A DNA stretch of 5,685 nt from a virus. The notes beneath the pieces were generated by a model that worked only from the letters and a program-made list of their open reading frames with translations, had not been told where the DNA came from and did not search any database. Shown one piece after another: positions 318-5,584 of the stretch; the stretch's first letter is position 1; each line of letters begins with the position of its first letter. Position numbers and translations under genes: made by a program. Where the stretch lies: IMG/VR virus record IMGVR_UViG_3300045988_003990, positions 1 to 5,685 of that record. One strand, given 5' to 3'.

Positions 318-747
318 ACGATATGAAGAAGGGCGAAAGCCCTTCTTTTCAGCATCGGGCGAAAAAATGCGAAAACAATACGTCTGGACAAAAGACGAGA
401 AAGGGCAGGAAGTGCTGCAAGAAACAGCACCAATCGACATCCAGCAAGAAATTGAATCGTACTCGGACGAATGCGATATCAAAAACATCGTCAGAAAAGC
501 AAGTTTTGACCCGCAGTTCCTTAAAAGCTTATCCGAAGGGACCATGACGGGGACAGAAATAGACATCACCGAATTTCCTCAAAACATTCACGAGTATCAC
601 CGCATGATTGCGACCGCACAGGCAAACGCAATGAAGCTGGAAGAACTACAGAAAATGGCAGAGGAACAAGCAAAAATGGAAGCGGAAAAAGCAAAAACTG
701 TAGCAAAACCTGAAGCAAAACCTGAAGCAAAGGAGGCAGAAAAGTGA
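310..747 (+). CDS. VP3: Internal scaffolding protein VP3 (145 aa).
   Basis: ATG at 310 has GGAGG at 296..300 (9-nt spacing) and overlaps the VP5 stop by 8 nt (ATGAATAA). The motif SYSDECDIKNIV resembles the conserved S(F/Y)k.ECDIN.I motif of gokushovirus scaffolding proteins. It has an acidic, helical, low-complexity C-terminus. The stop TGA overlaps the VP1 GTG start. I rejected the longer track ORF starting at 190 because it overlaps VP5 by 128 nt and has no SD. Confidence 0.8.
   Translation: MNKRYEEGRKPFFSASGEKMRKQYVWTKDEKGQEVLQETAPIDIQQEIESYSDECDIKNIVRKASFDPQFLKSLSEGTMTGTEIDITEFPQNIHEYHRMIATAQANAMKLEELQKMAEEQAKMEAEKAKTVAKPEAKPEAKEAEK
325..349 (+). other. GC-rich hairpin with a GAAA tetraloop followed by TTTT. 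It looks like an intrinsic terminator or attenuator and lies inside codons 6-13 of VP3.
   Basis: gaagggc (328..334) pairs with gcccttc (339..345) around loop gaaa (335..338). The stem extends through a326/a327 paired with t347/t346, and TTTT lies at 346..349. The architecture matches the 2422..2449 terminator. Confidence 0.4.
703..731 (+). repeat. 12-nt tandem repeat (gcaaaacctgaa, about 2.4 copies) encoding the (AKPE)n tail of VP3.
   Basis: gcaaaacctgaa occurs at 703..714 and 715..726, followed by gcaaa. The translation is AKPEAKPEAK, immediately before the AGGAGG SD of VP1. Confidence 0.85.
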
Positions 748-2411
748 ATCGAAACAATGAACGGCACTTTAACCAAATCCCAGAAATGAAAGCAAGTCGA
801 ACACGATTCAACCGCGACCAGACGATTTTAACAACGTTTGATTCCGGCAAACTGATTCCATTTTACGTGGACGAAGTATTGCCCGGCGATACCTTCAGCG
901 TGGACACGTCAGCGATTGTTCGAATGACCACACCGAAGTATCCGGTGATGGACGATGCATTCATTGACTTCTACTATTTCTATTGTCCTAACCGGATTCT
1001 GTGGGACAACTTCAAATATTTCATGGGAGAAATCGAAAGCACGGCATGGATGCCAACAAAAAATTACGAAGTACCCCAAATCGTCATAGACGCAAAAGAC
1101 GCACCATACGAAAAAAGCATACTAGACTACATGGGAGTGCCGACAAAAATTAAAAACAATTTCAGAGTAAACGCACTTCCCGTCAGAGCATACGTAAGAA
1201 TTTGGAATGAATTTTTTAGGGATGAAAACGTAGGCAATGCAGCAGTAGAATACAAAGACGATGACAACAGGTCCTACGGAGACACAAACGATGAAAACAA
1301 TCTAGAAAAAATCCTTCAAGAAGCAGCAAGGGGCGGCCGATGCTTACCAGTAAACAAATTCCACGACTACTTCACAAGCTGTTTGCCATATCCGCAACGC
1401 GGACCGGAAATTACGTTGCCAATGCAGGGCAATGCAATGATAAACGGATTCAAAGATCAAAAACTTAAGGAAAAAACAACTCTGTATGCAAACAGCTTTT
1501 TTGACGGAAGCACAACCGCAGGCAACGTCAAAGACAAACTGTATGCAATCTCAACATACGGAGGCGAAGGACAAGCATACGTAAACATCGGAACAGGAAC
1601 AGGAGAAACCCATGACGTAGTGTACCTGGGCGCAAACCTCAACAGCGTAACAGCAGCAACCATCAACGACTTACGAAAAGCGGTAACAGTGCAGCAGTAC
1701 TATGAAGCACTTGCAAGAGGCGGTAGCAGATACCGCGAACAGGTACAGGCACTGTGGGATGTCACAATCAGCGATAAAACTGTACAGATTCCGGAATACC
1801 TTGGCGGTGGCAGATACCATGTAAACATCAATCAGATTGTACAGACAAGCGGACAGCAGGCCAACGCTGACACGCCTATCGGTGAAACTGGTGCAATGTC
1901 AGTAACACCCATCAACGAAAGCAGTTTCACGAAATCCTTCGAGGAACATGGGTTTGTAATCGGAGTCTGTTGTGTGCGACACAATCACAGTTACCAGCAG
2001 GGGCTTGAACGATTCTGGAGCAGAAAAGACAGGCTAGACTACTATGTACCACAGTTCGCCAATTTGGGCGAACAGCCTGTCAAAAAGAAAGAAATCATGC
2101 TGACCGGCACAGCAAGCGATGAGGAAACATTCGGTTATCAGGAAGCATGGGCAGACTACAGAATGAAGCCTAACCGGGTATCCGGCCTCATGAGAAGCAA
2201 CGCAACGGGAACGCTGGACTTCTGGCATTATGCAGACAACTATTCAACACCTCCAACGCTGTCGCAGGAGTGGATGGCAGAAGGAAAAGCCGAAATCGCA
2301 CGAACACTAATCGTAGAGAATGAACCGCAGTTTTTCGGAGCGATTAGAGTAGCAAACAAAACCACAAGACGGATGCCGTTGTACAGCGTACCGGGCTTGT
2401 ACAAACTGTAA
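744..2411 (+). CDS. VP1: Major capsid protein VP1 (phiX F-like jelly-roll, 555 aa), with a GTG start.
   Basis: GTG at 744 is 7 nt downstream of a perfect AGGAGG (731..736) and overlaps the VP3 stop (GTGA). The N-terminal region ..SRTRFNRDQTILTTFDSGKLIPFYVDEVLPGDTF.. and the later DLR.A...Q.YYEALARGGSRY.E segment are hallmark conserved blocks of Microviridae VP1/F proteins. A long variable insertion (roughly aa 170-300) fits the gokushovirus 'mushroom' loop. Confidence 0.95.
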   Translation: MNRNNERHFNQIPEMKASRTRFNRDQTILTTFDSGKLIPFYVDEVLPGDTFSVDTSAIVRMTTPKYPVMDDAFIDFYYFYCPNRILWDNFKYFMGEIESTAWMPTKNYEVPQIVIDAKDAPYEKSILDYMGVPTKIKNNFRVNALPVRAYVRIWNEFFRDENVGNAAVEYKDDDNRSYGDTNDENNLEKILQEAARGGRCLPVNKFHDYFTSCLPYPQRGPEITLPMQGNAMINGFKDQKLKEKTTLYANSFFDGSTTAGNVKDKLYAISTYGGEGQAYVNIGTGTGETHDVVYLGANLNSVTAATINDLRKAVTVQQYYEALARGGSRYREQVQALWDVTISDKTVQIPEYLGGGRYHVNINQIVQTSGQQANADTPIGETGAMSVTPINESSFTKSFEEHGFVIGVCCVRHNHSYQQGLERFWSRKDRLDYYVPQFANLGEQPVKKKEIMLTGTASDEETFGYQEAWADYRMKPNRVSGLMRSNATGTLDFWHYADNYSTPPTLSQEWMAEGKAEIARTLIVENEPQFFGAIRVANKTTRRMPLYSVPGLYKL

Positions 2412-2450: not shown

Positions 2451-3314
2451 ATGGCAGGTTTATCAACACTCTTAACAGGGCTAAACATCGCCGGTTCAAT
2501 CGCGAGCACAGTAGGACAATTTGCAAACGCCGGCAAGCAAATCGCCGGAGCATTCGGCGGATGGGGTCAGACAGGCAACAGCCAAAGCCAGGGCGGAAGC
2601 ATAAGCCAGGGCGGCGGACACTCCAGCAGCGGAAGTCAAGCGGGGACAAACATACAACAGGTAAATGACTGGCTTAAACAGGCATATGCATACCAAGGAC
2701 AAGAAGCTGCAATGCAAGGTAAATACAACAGTCAAAGTATGCTTAAACAGATGGGATACAATACCTTGTCAGCAATCATGCAAGGCGTATATAACCACAT
2801 CGAGAACTCTGTAGCAATGAACTACAACAGCGCAGAAGCAGCCGCAAACCGTGAATGGCAAGAGCACATGTCAAGCACAGCATACCAGAGAGCCGTTGAA
2901 GATATGAAAAAAGCAGGGCTTAACCCAATCTTAGCTTTTGCAAACGGTGGAGCAAGCACACCGGGCGGAAGTGCAGGAACAATCAGCGGTGCAAGTATGG
3001 GACTAGCAAGCAGCAGCGCGCTAGGAGTAAGCCGGAGCGGTGGATTTGTACCAAACGCATACTCAAGTTCAAGCTGGAGTCAAAGTGACTGGTACAATGC
3101 TGCACAAAGCTGGCAACAGATGCTCAGTACAACACACATGACGCCATACGGACTACAAAAGGCGCTTACAGAAGTCGGAAACGACACAAGCAAGGCCATT
3201 ACGGATGCAACAACAAAGACAAGAAAAGGCACAGAACAGAACAGAAGCATGAAACCACAAGACAAAACAGGGTCCTACGGAGAAAAGAGAAAGCCGGGTG
3301 ATTATTTAAGATGA
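2451..3314 (+). CDS. VP2: Minor capsid / DNA pilot protein VP2 (287 aa).
   Basis: It sits directly after VP1. The N-terminal half is rich in Gly/Ser/Gln. The block NREWQEHMSSTAYQRAVEDMKKAGLNPILAF matches the conserved gokushovirus VP2 motif (..MS.TA.QR...D...AGLNP.LA.). The in-frame codon just before the ATG is TAA, so 2451 is the first possible start. Confidence 0.9.
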   Translation: MAGLSTLLTGLNIAGSIASTVGQFANAGKQIAGAFGGWGQTGNSQSQGGSISQGGGHSSSGSQAGTNIQQVNDWLKQAYAYQGQEAAMQGKYNSQSMLKQMGYNTLSAIMQGVYNHIENSVAMNYNSAEAAANREWQEHMSSTAYQRAVEDMKKAGLNPILAFANGGASTPGGSAGTISGASMGLASSSALGVSRSGGFVPNAYSSSSWSQSDWYNAAQSWQQMLSTTHMTPYGLQKALTEVGNDTSKAITDATTKTRKGTEQNRSMKPQDKTGSYGEKRKPGDYLR

Positions 3315-4330
3315 GTTGTTACAAGCCATTAATAAGGCTGTACAACCCAAAAAATAAAGACATAAGCGGGCGGGTGTATTCACTTGCCCGCTTTTCTAAA
3401 ATAAGCGGGAAACAGCTCAAATATGAAGATCTAATGTACAGAAAAGATGTAATGTTGATACCATGCGGACAGTGCATCGGATGCAGAATCAGACAAAGGG
3501 AAGACTGGACAACACGAATAGAATTAGAAGCACGAGATTATCCAAGAGAAGAAGTTTGGTTTATCACACTTACTTATGATGATGAACACGTACCGGGTAT
3601 GATAGTAAACACAGGCGAAATCATACGAAAAGTGCAGTACGTCTGGAAGCCGGGAAAGAAGCGCCCTGAAAGCGTCCAAACGTTACTGTATACTGACGTT
3701 CAAAAGTTCTTAAAACGCCTTAGAAAGGCTTATAAGGGCAAATTACGCTATTTCATAGCAGGAGAGTACGGAGAACAGACAGCAAGGCCGCATTATCATA
3801 TGATACTGTATGGATGGCAACCGACAGACCTAGAGCACCTATACAAGATACGGCACAACGGATATTTCACGAGTAAATGGCTAACGGACCTATGGGGCAT
3901 GGGTCAAATACAGATAGCGCAAGCAGTGCCAGAAACATATAGATATGTTGCAGGATACGTCACAAAAAAAATGTATGAGATAGACGGTCAAAAAGCAAAC
4001 GCATACTACGAACTAGGGCAACAAAAGCCATTCGCATGTATGAGCCTTAAACCGGGTCTGGGAGATCACTACTATCAAGAACACAAAGCAGAAATCTGGA
4101 GACAAGGATACATCCAATGCACAAACGGCAAACGCGCACAAATTCCACGCTATTATGAAAAAATGATGGAAGCTGAAAACCCACAAAGATTGTGGAGAAT
4201 TAAACAGAACAGACAAGCAACAACCATAGCGGAGAACCGGCTTAAATACGAAAATGCAGACTTTGCAGAACAGTGTAAAACGAAAGAGAGAGTGATAAAG
4301 AAGCAGATGAAGAAAAAAGGGACACTTTAA
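3311..4330 (+). CDS. VP4: Replication initiation protein VP4 (HUH rolling-circle endonuclease, phiX A-like, 339 aa).
   Basis: The ATG overlaps the VP2 stop (ATGA). It carries a Cys cluster PCGQCIGCR, RCR motif 1 FITLTYD, the HUH motif PHYHMILYG, and the double-tyrosine catalytic motif YRYVAGYVTKK (phiX A protein has YVAKYVNKK). Confidence 0.95.
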   Translation: MSCYKPLIRLYNPKNKDISGRVYSLARFSKISGKQLKYEDLMYRKDVMLIPCGQCIGCRIRQREDWTTRIELEARDYPREEVWFITLTYDDEHVPGMIVNTGEIIRKVQYVWKPGKKRPESVQTLLYTDVQKFLKRLRKAYKGKLRYFIAGEYGEQTARPHYHMILYGWQPTDLEHLYKIRHNGYFTSKWLTDLWGMGQIQIAQAVPETYRYVAGYVTKKMYEIDGQKANAYYELGQQKPFACMSLKPGLGDHYYQEHKAEIWRQGYIQCTNGKRAQIPRYYEKMMEAENPQRLWRIKQNRQATTIAENRLKYENADFAEQCKTKERVIKKQMKKKGTL

Positions 4331-4348
4331 CAGTGTCATGGTGTCACC

Positions 4349-4382
4349 TAGCCCAGTACCTATCAAGTAAGGTCCTGGGCTA
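4349..4382 (+). other. Imperfect stem-loop downstream of VP4, with no T-tract.
   Basis: tagcccag (4349..4356) pairs with ctgggcta (4375..4382). An inner stem pairs acct (4358..4361) with aggt (4370..4373) across a t/c mismatch, leaving the 8-nt loop atcaagta. A smaller hairpin, gacact/agtgtc (4321..4337), spans the VP4 stop. Confidence 0.6.
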
Positions 4383-4437
4383 TTGTCATCTAAATGGACC
4401 ATGTATCAGACTATTCAGTCTATAAAATAATCTTATT

Positions 4438-4497
4438 CACACGTGCGCACACGCGCGATAGCGCGCACGCGCGCACGCGCGATATAATATTAACTTG
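4438..4497. repeat. Extremely GC-rich alternating purine/pyrimidine block that ends abruptly in an AT-rich TATAATATTAACTTG motif. It is a candidate replication-origin element.
   Basis: There are two alternating Py/Pu runs of 20-21 nt (4438..4457 cacacgtgcgcacacgcgcg; 4461..4481 gcgcgcacgcgcgcacgcgcg). acgcgcgata repeats at 4451..4460 and 4475..4484, and gcgcacgcgcg repeats at 4463 and 4471. The inverted repeat cgtgcgc (4442..4448) can pair with gcgcacg (4463..4469 or 4471..4477). TAATATTAAC follows at 4485..4494 and AACTTG at 4492..4497. Confidence 0.7.
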
Positions 4498-4519
4498 TTG
4501 TAGACGTAGTAGTAGGCAA

Positions 4520-4694
4520 TGTGGAAAAGTTGAAAAGCACTAAAATTTAACGTTAAAACGTAAATAAAAAACAAAAAACAATGTTGAAAGTTTTGTTGAA
4601 AAAATGTTGAATTGTTGAAAGTTCGTCAAAATAACGAAAATCATTGTGCAACATTTTGTTGAAAACCTGTTGAAAGTGTTGAAAGTGTTGAAAA
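4520..4694 (+). repeat. Iteron-like array of direct TGTTGAAA repeats in three clusters, including a perfect 9-nt tandem triplet.
   Basis: Perfect TGTTGAAA starts at 4582, 4594, 4613, 4657, 4668, 4677 and 4686. One-mismatch copies start at 4520 (TGTGGAAA), 4528 (AGTTGAAA) and 4605 (TGTTGAAT). All copies share one orientation, and the spacings within clusters are 8-12 nt. The triplet is tgttgaaag/tgttgaaag/tgttgaaaa at 4668..4694. An A-rich stretch (4541..4581) separates the upstream pair (4520, 4528) from the first main cluster. Confidence 0.9.
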
Positions 4695-4753
4695 CGCGCA
4701 CAGCGCTTACAAGGAATGGATTATCCGAGCTCCGCATACGCTACGCACGGAAA

Positions 4754-4767
4754 GGCGCTAAAGCGCC
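4754..4767. promoter_or_regulatory. Inverted repeat GGCGC-N4-GCGCC about 20 nt upstream of the -35 element. It could be an operator or a small hairpin.
   Basis: ggcgc (4754..4758), taaa, gcgcc (4763..4767). No T-tract follows it. Confidence 0.35.
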
Positions 4768-4785
4768 ATTCAAACCAAAAAACAA

Positions 4786-4814
4786 TTGACAGACGACAAA
4801 ATATATGATAAAAT
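4786..4814 (+). promoter_or_regulatory. Near-consensus sigma70/sigmaA promoter: TTGACA, 17-nt spacer, TGnTAAAAT (extended -10).
   Basis: TTGACA lies at 4786..4791 and TAAAAT at 4809..4814 with an exact 17-nt spacer. TG lies at 4806..4807 (extended -10). An A-rich UP-like tract lies upstream (4771..4785). It sits at the end of the only long non-coding region and points into the gene string. The predicted transcription start is around 4821. Confidence 0.75.
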
Positions 4815-4839: not shown

Positions 4840-5229
4840 ATGATTAAAAGTTATATCGTGGACCAAAACGCAAACGAAAAAGTAGGAAAGCACTTTAAAG
4901 TAAAAGAATTTGCGTGCAAAGACGGATCTCAAGCAGTATTTATAGACGAACACCTCGCATCAATCTTAGACATTCTCCGAAACAAAATCGGAAAACCTGT
5001 CATCATCACCAGCGGATACAGAACGCCAGAGTGGAACAAAAGATGTGGAGGAGCAAAGTACAGTTACCATATACGCGGTATGGCTGCAGACATTCGAGTA
5101 AATGGAATGAGCGCAAAAGAAATCGCCAACGAACTGAATGCAATCGTTCCGAATGAATGCGGCATTATCGTATATAAAAGTTGGGTACATTTCGATGTAA
5201 GGACCAGCAAATACAGAAAGGGGGTATAA
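4840..5229 (+). CDS. Zinc metallopeptidase of the M15 family (M15A / Peptidase_M15_3-like cell-wall hydrolase, 129 aa). It is a putative endolysin.
   Basis: ATG at 4840 lies downstream of GAGGG (4829..4833). The motifs are SGYRTPEWN, then SYH-x6-D (H77 at 5068..5070, D84) in HIRGMAADI, then WVHFD (H117). This is the H..D...H zinc-ligand arrangement of the LAS/M15 peptidoglycan peptidases. There is no N-terminal signal peptide or transmembrane (TM) segment. I rejected the track start at 4786 (TTG) because it is the -35 hexamer. Confidence 0.85.
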   Translation: MIKSYIVDQNANEKVGKHFKVKEFACKDGSQAVFIDEHLASILDILRNKIGKPVIITSGYRTPEWNKRCGGAKYSYHIRGMAADIRVNGMSAKEIANELNAIVPNECGIIVYKSWVHFDVRTSKYRKGV

Positions 5230-5230
5230 G

Positions 5231-5353
5231 ATGGCTCTGATTTCCATTAAGGACGTCAAGCAGGCAATCCGCATTATGATGCAGATTCTGGAAAAGCTCG
5301 ACGAAATCTATCACGCGCTGCATGATAGCATCAACGAAAAAGAAAAGGAGTAA
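5231..5353 (+). CDS. Hypothetical small protein (40 aa), absent from the ORF track: MALISIKDVKQAIRIMMQILEKLDEIYHALHDSINEKEKE.
   Basis: The ATG lies 1 nt after the peptidase stop, with AAAGGGG (5218..5224) 6 nt upstream. The stop is at 5351..5353. Its own 3' end carries the AAGGAG SD of the next ORF, so the genes are tightly packed. It looks like a single amphipathic helix with an acidic tail and no TM segment. Confidence 0.6.
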   Translation: MALISIKDVKQAIRIMMQILEKLDEIYHALHDSINEKEKE

Positions 5354-5356
5354 ACC

Positions 5357-5584
5357 ATGGTACACAAAACATGGAACATACGAGACCAGACCACAAAAGA
5401 ACTAGAAATTCTACTCGAACGAAAATACAAAGAAATTGATAGCAATTACAAAATGTTTAAAAAAGCGTCAAGTATCGAAGATGCTAAAAGAATAGTAAAC
5501 GAAACTCGGCAAATAAAAAACTTTGCAAACGACATCGAATTAGAGCTAATGCGAAGGGAGTACAACAATGGCACGACATCGTAA
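5357..5584 (+). CDS. Hypothetical protein (75 aa), highly charged and apparently all-helical or coiled-coil.
   Basis: ATG at 5357 is preceded by AAGGAG (5345..5350) at 6-nt spacing. Its 3' end overlaps the ORF8-like start by 17 nt and contains that gene's SD. I recognise no family motif. Confidence 0.65.
   Translation: MVHKTWNIRDQTTKELEILLERKYKEIDSNYKMFKKASSIEDAKRIVNETRQIKNFANDIELELMRREYNNGTTS

Follow-up and report, generated by a model that had tools for sequence, protein, structure and literature searches.

A putative DnaA-type unwinding module and a separate GC-rich hairpin adjoin downstream of VP4 in a gut gokushovirus genome

The virus record IMGVR_UViG_3300045988_003990 of IMG/VR comprises 5,685 nucleotides, a stretch that we analysed at its full length and refer to as the window, and represents a complete circular gokushovirus genome with a terminal redundancy of 55 nt, its start being repeated at its end. 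Inside the noncoding region between VP4, which encodes the replication-initiation protein (Rep), and a peptidase M15 gene, an interval at 4438-4503 joins a block of very high G+C content to an AT-rich motif, and an initial annotation had proposed this interval as the VP4 nick site, as a structure for priming the complementary strand, or as both. On balance, we favour a reading in which the interval is the junction of two unrelated elements: the AT-rich end of a module that mimics the basal unwinding system (BUS) of a bacterial chromosomal origin (oriC), and a separate, dispensable GC-rich hairpin. The VP4 nick is predicted to lie in a third element, hairpin A, approximately 120 bases upstream. 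That no gokushovirus origin has been mapped experimentally, as the initial annotation supposed, agrees with the searchable literature, in which we found no such mapping. The features of the interval and of the module are these:

4438-4484: GC block, a Z-DNA-prone quasi-palindrome of alternating CG and CA steps (arm 4438-4457, loop ATAG 4458-4461, arm 4462-4481).
4482-4694: the whole conserved oriC-like module, approximately 213 nt, noncoding; a cassette found in either orientation relative to the genes among relatives.
4482-4493: run of 12 bases, all A or T (ATATAATATTAA), resembling a DNA-unwinding element at the end of the module; it includes the TAATATTAA of the initial annotation.
4492-4500, plus strand: nearly invariant core AACTTGTTG, between the AT run and the trios.
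4501-4515, plus strand: repeats resembling DnaA-trios, TAG ACG TAG TAG TAG, with three 3'-GAT-5' units beside the box.
4516-4519, plus strand: 4-nt spacer GCAA, which parts the trios from the first box.
4520-4536, minus strand: two tandem proximal 9-mers resembling DnaA boxes, TTTTCAACT and TTTTCCACA, offset by 8 nt.
4582-4621, minus strand: middle array of four box-like repeats in one orientation (on the plus strand TGTTGAAAG, TGTTGAAAA, TGTTGAAT, TGTTGAAAG).
4657-4694, minus strand: distal array of four box-like repeats (on the plus strand TGTTGAAAA, TGTTGAAAG twice, TGTTGAAAA).

Along the plus strand the A/T run is followed by CTTGTTG, the trios, the 4-nt spacer, the proximal pair TGTGGAAAA and GTTGAAAA, and then two arrays of four TGTTGAAAR repeats in the same orientation. 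The repeats have the consensus TGT(T/G)GAAA(A/G), or TGTKGAAAA, which is TTTTCMACA in complement. On the minus strand TTTTCCACA (4520-4528) differs from the canonical DnaA box, TTATCCACA, at one position and TTTTCAACT at three.

The published rule for a BUS (PMC8287927) calls for a DnaA box with no more than two mismatches to TTATCCACA or to a species-specific box, often paired in tandem with an adjacent second box of no more than four mismatches, for a spacer of up to 16 bp (a gap of approximately 4 bp, typically GC-rich), for at least three 3'-NAN-5' trios of consensus 3'-GAT-5', and for an AT-rich region. The module has a box with one mismatch, a tandem second box with three, a spacer of suitable length, three GAT units and an A/T run. 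The same succession is known from the incC BUS of B. subtilis, where DnaA-boxes 6 and 7 are followed by a GC spacer, DnaA-trios and an AT-rich region (Richardson 2016/2019; Pelliciari 2021; PMC8287927, PMC6669920). The sequences below are written 3' to 5', the two bacterial ones after the supplement of PMC8287927:

B. subtilis: AATAGGTGT TTAGGTGT CCGG GATGATAATGAAGATGAT (GATGATAAT...) AAAAAATAT
T. elongatus: AAAAGGTGT AAAGGTGT CCGG GATGATGATGAT
Window, plus strand: AAAAGTTGA AAAGGTGT AACG GAT GAT GAT GCA GAT GTT GTT CAA TTATAATAT

Module and bacterial systems have in common the order and polarity of their parts on one strand, namely tandem boxes 8 nt apart, a spacer of 4 nt, three or more trios and a run of A and T only; the 9+8 layout of the boxes is that of B. 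subtilis, C. acetobutylicum and T. elongatus, more boxes lie upstream in an array, and the geometry is kept while the sequence of the spacer varies. They differ in setting, the module being carried between VP4 and the peptidase M15 gene of a 5.6-kb rolling-circle phage with a single-stranded DNA (ssDNA) genome rather than beside dnaA or dnaN. The module departs further in having TTTTCAACA, not TTATCCACA, as its box consensus, and a short AT run of 12 nt in the window; the supplement of PMC8287927 includes TTTTCAACA among its species-specific DnaA boxes. Our literature search returned nothing specific on DnaA boxes in Microviridae.

A strict pattern, defined as a box with at most one mismatch followed by three CTA units within 16 nt, occurs once, at the expected site, and in none of 300 shuffled genomes, while all nine GTKGAAA heptamers of the genome fall at 4521-4693 on one strand, where approximately 1.4 would be expected genome-wide. 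No such clusters of boxes are present in phiX174, Chp2, SpV4, phiMH2K or the small microviruses. We gathered relatives through VP4 similarity (80), through a DNA pattern (more than 100) and from BLAST matches in GenBank; the distant copies of the module came from a pattern search for AACTTGTTGTAGNNGTAGTAG, unique genomes with the module in the same orientation as in the window (n=127) served for counts of motifs and gaps, and unique modules (n=141) for geometry. The box-proximal TAG run comprises three to six units, 116 of the 141 modules have a spacer of 4 nt and 120 a box offset of 8-9 nt, while the spacer sequence is variable and purine-rich (G 207, A 159, C 64, T 56). Orthologous box positions alternate among TGTTGAAAA, TGTGGAAAA and, in some genomes, a perfect TGTGGATAA, the complement of TTATCCACA.

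The module is also conserved between divergent phages: BLAST alignments with distant gokushoviruses begin at approximately 4482-4488 and end at 4620-4695 with 70-85% identity, and the sequence at 4483-4684 retains this identity although VP4 and VP1 are only 38-58% identical to those of the window. Relatives preserve an A/T-only run followed by AACTTGTTGTAG; the run itself varies in sequence and in length (12-28 nt), and the exact core AACTTGTTG is present at 70 of the 80 loci found by VP4 similarity, the others being truncated or chimeric and one (L079) reading AAGTTG. Relative to the genes, the module is oriented as in the window in 146 genomes and inverted in 33, the latter including a whole clade at 38-40% VP4 identity as well as ten close relatives whose cassette is flipped beside an unmoved GC block. 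In the close relatives L039, L027, L046, L049, L053 and L054 the inverted cassettes are similar to the ones in the distant inverted clade (TGTTGAATGTTCGTCATTATGAC being one example), which argues for exchange of the cassette rather than local inversion, and points to horizontal transfer between divergent gokushoviruses, the breakpoints lying at the GC block and at CGCGCACAGCGC. Other identities for the module found no support. A structured RNA or structured ssDNA origin was rejected, as RNAalifold predicted no base pairs across 34 copies and neither strand matched anything relevant in Rfam; the open reading frames at 4394-4543 (plus) and 4540-4737 (minus) lack Pfam matches, and the alignment contains 1-nt indels and variable spacers; and PLSDB held no plasmid with similarity to an origin or to a single-strand origin (sso).

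Several observations weigh against this interpretation. The spacer is purine-rich where the bacterial one is G+C-rich, CAACAAG intervenes between the AT run and the trios, and the invariant AACTTGTTG at that place has no bacterial counterpart and is unexplained. Two positions separate most boxes (TGTTGAAAA) from TTATCCACA, including position 6, where they have A and the relaxed consensus has C. The published BUS rule is permissive when applied loosely, with 8 matches in this genome against 4.9 in shuffled genomes, and carries little weight; the search with AACTTGTTGTAGNNGTAGTAG biases the distant copies, so that the conservation of that part is partly ascertained. The link of DnaA to the module is comparative; the repeat array could bind some other protein, and the role given below to the GC block is weakly supported.

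If the module does act as its layout suggests, host DnaA would bind the array of boxes on the double-stranded replicative form, spread over the 4-nt spacer to the TAG trios, starting from the proximal pair of boxes, and so open the adjoining AT run. This opening could help to expose the nearby Rep origin hairpin, or could load the host helicase for replication of the replicative form; as a secondary possibility, the module might titrate DnaA away from the host chromosome. Because such a mechanism would act on duplex DNA, the cassette would work in either orientation, and its conservation across phages with very different VP4 proteins would be understandable.

The Rep origin itself is more likely to be sought in hairpin A, which lies ten nt past the VP4 stop codon and was seen both as an inverted repeat and in the ssDNA fold:

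4349-4382, minus strand: hairpin A, with a 13-bp stem and a loop of 8-10 nt, TTACTTGATA, the complement of 4361-4370.
4340-4351, minus strand: flank CTAGGTGACACC (CTAGGTGACAC), directly 3' of hairpin A and 12 nt past the predicted nick.

The minus strand reads AGCCCAGGACC TTACTTGATA GGTACTGGGCT AGGTGACACC, and its loop matches eight of the ten bases of the phiX174 core CAACTTG^ATA, the common ACTTGATA including the G^A cleavage dinucleotide. We predict that VP4 cuts the minus strand at G^A between 4364 and 4363 (TTACTTG^ATA, 4361-4370). In VP4, RPHYHMILY aligns with the HUH motif of phiX174 protein A, and there is a tyrosine motif, YRYVAGYVTKK. The 30-bp viral-strand origin of phiX174, cut by protein A (CAACTTG^ATATTAATAACACTATAGACCAC), continues with a 'binding' segment, CTATAGACCAC, 12 nt past its G^A, to which the flank CTAGGTGACACC may correspond. 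Hairpin A resembles phiX174 in its contiguous ACTTG^ATA core, in a conserved downstream segment at approximately 12 nt (CTAGGTGACAC being placed as CTATAGACCAC is) and in the HUH type of the enzyme; it differs in being an intergenic stem-loop read on the non-coding strand, where the phiX174 origin lies inside gene A, on the coding strand and outside any hairpin.

Hairpins of this type are widespread. An IMG/VR search for TTACTTGATA-N9-14-TAGGTGAC returned at least 120 contigs, and the matches listed contained 60 distinct true hairpins, in which the flank is conserved, its TAGGTGAC portion having been demanded by the search pattern. A 44-nt query matched 109 microviruses in GenBank, their sources being ascidians, bees, birds, rodents, peat and sediments, and many of these microviruses keep the flank. 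The stems covary, with compensatory changes at 8 of 10 pairs, 94% of cells paired and none of 500 shuffles equal, in an alignment built from hand-selected hairpins in register. Chp2 has its homologue at position 2904 of its plus strand (14-bp stem, loop TCTACTTGAT, flank GTGATAGC) and SpV4 at 512 (10-bp stem, loop ATTACTTGTTATA, flank TTGACGAC). The loop changes with the VP4 clade, reading TATCAAGTAAG, TATCAAGAAGA or ATAGACAAGGAAG on the coding strand, as expected for a Rep-specific site. We found no description of the ACTTGATA motif in the literature. Olo Ndela et al. (2022; PMC9865509) described intergenic hairpins with identical loops and compensatory stem changes in reekeekee- and roodoodooviruses, leaving their function open while leaning towards initiation of the complementary strand; the phiX174-like loop, the flank and the inversion relative to the genes are not reported there. 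Hairpin A is in our view a candidate for the universal Rep origin hairpin of microviruses other than the phiX174 type. Elsewhere in SpV4 (L197), AACTTGATAAG, a 9-nt identity with the phiX174 origin, lies in a small hairpin at 1636-1662 upstream of VP1; this site (at 1640) and the TATCAAG sites of phiMH2K are weaker candidates than the SpV4 hairpin at 512.

The orientation of hairpin A divides the family. The TTACTTGATA strand is the coding strand in phiX174, Chp2, SpV4, the Ciona and Apis microviruses and approximately two dozen small microviruses of IMG/VR, and the non-coding strand in the window and in all 140 genomes of the gut group; GenBank records divide likewise, small microviruses matching on the plus strand and gut gokushoviruses of 5-6 kb on the minus strand. 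In origins of the phiX174 type, it is the nicked strand that is packaged. Composition at four-fold degenerate sites goes with the orientation of hairpin A. On the coding strand these sites are T-rich in phiX174 (0.54), Chp2 (0.51) and SpV4 (0.74) and have more T than A in 17 of 24 canonical IMG/VR genomes (two chance matches having been dropped), whereas they are strongly A-rich in every genome of the gut group (A approximately 0.5, T approximately 0.12; in the window 0.51 and 0.12). An independent lineage, L231, whose VP1 is 47-53% identical to that of L205 and L206, carries the hairpin on the non-coding strand and has A at 0.37 and T at 0.13, against a T of 0.62-0.69 in L205 and L206. The skew is equal in genomes with the module in the same or the inverted orientation, and the orientation of the module therefore does not set the packaged strand. 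Taken together, the orientation of the hairpin and a skew that follows it and not the cassette suggest that the hairpin strand is the single strand that is packaged, and that the gut group packages its antisense strand; the canonical genomes that depart from the T-rich rule weaken this suggestion. A fuller scenario, which we consider rather doubtful, would have the 5-6 kb gokushoviruses of the mammalian gut carry an inverted Rep origin and negative-sense virions, together with an oriC mimic that recruits DnaA and a GC block that forms a hairpin in the packaged minus strand. Were it true, the mimic would open the replicative form, either assisting the nicking by Rep or allowing plasmid-like theta replication and the titration of DnaA.

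The GC block is as the initial annotation described it in sequence. Two perfectly alternating pyrimidine/purine tracts (4438-4457, 20 nt; 4461-4481, 21 nt) contain direct repeats (ACGCGCGATA at 4451 and 4475; GCGCACGCGCG at 4463 and 4471) and inverted repeats (CGTGCGC at 4442 opposite GCGCACG at 4463 and 4471), and form an island of 72% G+C in a genome of 44% (37% A, 18% T). The longest alternating run exceeds chance, at 21 nt compared to a mean of 12.5 and a maximum of 19 among 500 shuffles. An assembly artefact, which had been raised as a concern, is excluded by blocks of like architecture in most of approximately 190 independently assembled relatives (more than 100 independent assemblies). 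Here the block does end directly in the AT motif (ATATAATATTAACTTG / GATATAATATTAACTTGTTG, with TAATATTAAC at 4485 and AACTTG at 4492), but this abutment is not conserved: the gap to AACTTG is 15 nt or less in only 29 of the 127 genomes, 16-35 nt in 27, 36-70 nt in 48 and more than 70 nt in 4, and 19 have no block within 150 nt upstream. Where the block is distant, another hairpin often intervenes before the AT motif.

What relatives conserve is the plan of arm, A-rich loop of 3-4 nt and arm, its presence and position being facultative. No block was found anywhere in 39 of 179 module-bearing genomes (approximately 20%), and its lack in a fifth of the relatives argues that it is not essential; in inverted-module relatives such as L039 it keeps its place although the module has flipped, and in recombinants it forms the left breakpoint of cassette replacement. 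L009, L012, L020, L028 and others have extra GC-rich hairpins between hairpin A and the block (for example GGGGTTGACTTAAAAGTCAACCCC, GCCCCAATCTTGGGGC and GGCGCTATTGTTCGCAAGCTCACAAGCGCC), and this spacer behaves like a hypervariable hairpin cassette. Less can be said of the block itself: it is separate from the module and is one of several interchangeable, dispensable and stable GC-rich hairpins. Its role would most likely be structural, either in the ssDNA genome, for example in initiation of the complementary strand, or as a recombination boundary.

Initiation of the complementary strand, from a packaged-strand hairpin at which host primase, RNA polymerase or PriA would begin conversion to the replicative form, is the alternative that survives best; we hold it tentatively, as a possibility compatible with the preferred reading. 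The initial annotation considered that several alternative hairpins could form in the packaged ssDNA. The plus strand folds no better than shuffled sequence (-16.3 kcal/mol, z = -0.27), while the minus strand (-23.8, z = -3.0) forms an unbroken hairpin of 21 bp, because each mismatch turns into a G.T pair. Among 47 distinct variants from relatives the minus-strand hairpin is the stabler in 45, with 20-22 unbroken pairs, an A-rich loop and -23 to -31 kcal/mol, and lineages at 45-95% VP4 identity repeat the succession of arm, loop and arm. Should the packaged strand be the minus strand, as the orientation of hairpin A and the composition skew suggest, a 21-bp hairpin would be present in virion DNA and priming from it becomes more plausible. 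Within the blocks of relatives A outnumbers T by 618 to 208, and the CA steps of the plus strand are the expected product of C-to-T change on the minus strand. Similar hairpins are used by ssDNA phages and rolling-circle plasmids (discussed also in PMC9865509), and the block has in common with the n' primosome site of phiX174, oric of G4, the minus-strand origin of M13, plasmid sso elements and the DnaA-dependent ABC primosome hairpin that a stable noncoding hairpin stands near a Rep origin. It shares no sequence with them, however, having neither a conserved loop sequence nor any likeness to known priming sites or sso elements, and it had no plasmid match in PLSDB; in the module, the DnaA boxes stand outside any hairpin stem, and a conserved structure was not found. 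Some of the related genomes that dispense with the block have no substitute hairpin in the region, and the strand asymmetry may be merely compositional, since CG/CA alternation always folds on the strand that reads CG/TG. As a terminator the block was rejected, neither strand having a U-tract.

It is unlikely, in our estimation, that the TGTTGAAAG array consists of iterons for another binder, such as a small phage protein, a transcription factor of the host or a protein for partition or segregation, with the TAG repeats as an incidental microsatellite. The two departures of the commonest box from the canonical DnaA box would fit such a binder, as would the small proteins without assigned function that the genome encodes, and TTGAAA resembles a -35 hexamer, with one weak promoter-like site within the array. 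The free switching of orthologous boxes among TGTTGAAAA, TGTGGAAAA and a perfect TGTGGATAA speaks against it, as does the coincidence of polarity, 8-nt tandem offset, 4-nt spacer and three or more GAT units with the bacterial layout; a module common to phages whose proteins are only 38-58% identical favours a conserved host factor.

The proposal that the AT motif is the VP4 nick site was built on two resemblances, and we now regard it as improbable, even in the form of a second nick at AACTTG^TTG exposed as a single strand beside the GC clamp. The first resemblance, to the geminivirus nonanucleotide, did not hold: TAATATTA(A)C / TAATATTAAC is exact in only 25 of 127 unique relatives, the others having TATAATATATAAC, TATTATATTAAC or TTATTATTAAC. 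Origins of geminiviruses and other CRESS-DNA viruses (with circular single-stranded genomes that encode a Rep) have a GC-rich stem-loop, with Rep iterons at its flanks, whose loop holds the nonanucleotide TAATATTAC. The window offers a comparable GC-rich inverted repeat beside an AT-rich TAATATTA-like string and a repeat array, with an HUH Rep encoded nearby, but its string has an extra base and lies 3' of the hairpin, outside any loop, and its repeats resemble DnaA boxes rather than iterons. The second resemblance, to phiX174, is correct as far as it goes, the annotated origin of that phage indeed reading CAACTTGATATTAATAAC, and the AT motif having both AACTTG and ATATTAA. The two halves are nevertheless swapped and overlapping, AACTTG continuing into the TTGTAG of the trios, and only AACTTG is conserved, the other half (TAATATTAA) being variable; the hexamer alone is not significant, as it occurs also at position 259.

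In favour of a nick here, TAACTTGTTG is almost invariant across genomes with 38-95% VP4 identity, AACTTG matches the 5' half of the phiX174 nick region, the loop of the origin-like hairpin in SpV4 (TTACTTG TTATA) indicates that a T after the G is tolerated in a relative, and a neighbouring DnaA-type unwinding element could expose AACTTG^TTG as ssDNA. Yet the strand of the motif flips with the module in 33 genomes, a whole clade among them, while four-fold-site composition stays with the genes, and a carrier found in both orientations beside an unmoved strand bias is hard to square with a site that defines the strand. The motif lies in no stem-loop; Chp2, SpV4, phiMH2K, phiX174 and the small microviruses lack the module, though each must have a Rep origin; and hairpin A, in the same genome, matches the Microviridae-wide loop at 10 of 10 positions and has a conserved flank besides. 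The description of the motif as origin-like is thus apt for the AT-rich end of an element resembling a DnaA-type unwinding site, and not for a nick site or a geminivirus-like motif. Two further identities were set aside: TATAAT at 4483-4488 is not conserved and has no -35 element, the sole strong promoter being that at 4786-4814, and no convincing likeness to a dif/XerCD or prophage attachment site was seen by eye.

The least probable alternative is that the block is a Z-DNA or cruciform element which buffers superhelical stress or clamps the spread of unwinding on supercoiled duplex: its perfect 20- and 21-nt CG/CA alternations exceed the usual sequence criterion for Z-DNA (alternating purine-pyrimidine, rich in CG and CA, at least approximately 12 bp) and make such behaviour plausible, in 56 of 127 genomes a block is found no further than 35 nt from the module's AT end, and block-less genomes have another GC hairpin (hairpin A) approximately 25 nt from that end, but its position is variable and often parted from the module by another hairpin, and it adjoins the box end instead in some inverted-module genomes.

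The recognisable genes of the window are all on the plus strand:

plus strand: an ORF5-like protein.
plus strand: a Chp2-type scaffold protein.
744-2411, plus strand: VP1.
plus strand: VP2.
3311-4330, plus strand: VP4, the HUH replication protein.
4840-5229, plus strand: peptidase M15, preceded by a noncoding region of 510 nt.
5231-5353 and 5357-5584: small proteins without assigned function.

The closest relatives in GenBank are gokushoviruses of the human and pig gut, at approximately 84% identity. Tandem repeats at 652-731, within the scaffold-protein gene (a 21-nt unit repeated 2.2 times and a 12-nt unit, AAGCAAAACCTG, repeated 3.6 times), encode a repeated short peptide tract. Upstream of the peptidase M15 gene, at 4786-4814, a sigma-70 promoter close to the consensus, with 11 of 12 matches (TTGACA, 17 nt, TG-n-TAAAAT), suggests a host with standard promoters of this type. 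A second conserved noncoding element (ACGCGCACAGCGC...GGCGCTAAAGCGCC) occupies 4695-4779 and includes a hairpin at 4750-4771. Its identity is 80-86% in the clade at 38-40% VP4 identity, where it lies approximately 1 kb away from the DnaA-like cassette. One scan of genome contigs gave neither a prophage nor a host, its only matches being a phage contig mis-binned with Bacteroides sp. CAG:545 and a fortuitous hit within an unrelated gene. One 5.7-kb gokushovirus of the inverted clade (L194, CAVKUS010000079.1) is binned with a metagenome-assembled genome of Bacteroides sp. CAG:545, which is weak evidence for that host and possibly a binning artefact. Two sets of contigs were discounted: L010/L213 (IMGVR_UViG_3300045988_086966, 8.8 kb), which lacks the module and has tailed-phage terminase, portal and Mu-F genes joined just past hairpin A, is uninformative and probably a chimeric assembly of a gokushovirus and a tailed phage; and the large contigs L119, L136, L138, L139 and L195, which contain the trio pattern, are chance matches in Ser/Thr-rich or repeat-rich coding DNA.

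Gokushoviruses are among the most abundant ssDNA phages in animal guts. If the proposed reading is true, the cassette that combines DnaA boxes with DnaA-trios would stand as the first oriC-type element for unwinding to be described from an ssDNA phage that replicates by rolling circle; it would couple the replication of the phage to the host's initiator, and the type of its boxes would be a clue to the host. The candidate Rep origin hairpin, with a phiX174-like loop common to more than 100 GenBank microviruses including Chp2 and SpV4, emerged as a by-product and, inverted as it is in the gut clade, may be of greater importance than the oriC-type element itself. This inversion, with a matching flip of third-position composition in two independent lineages, predicts packaging of the antisense strand. 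The results bear on the orientation and annotation of microvirus genomes and on the construction of synthetic gokushoviruses.

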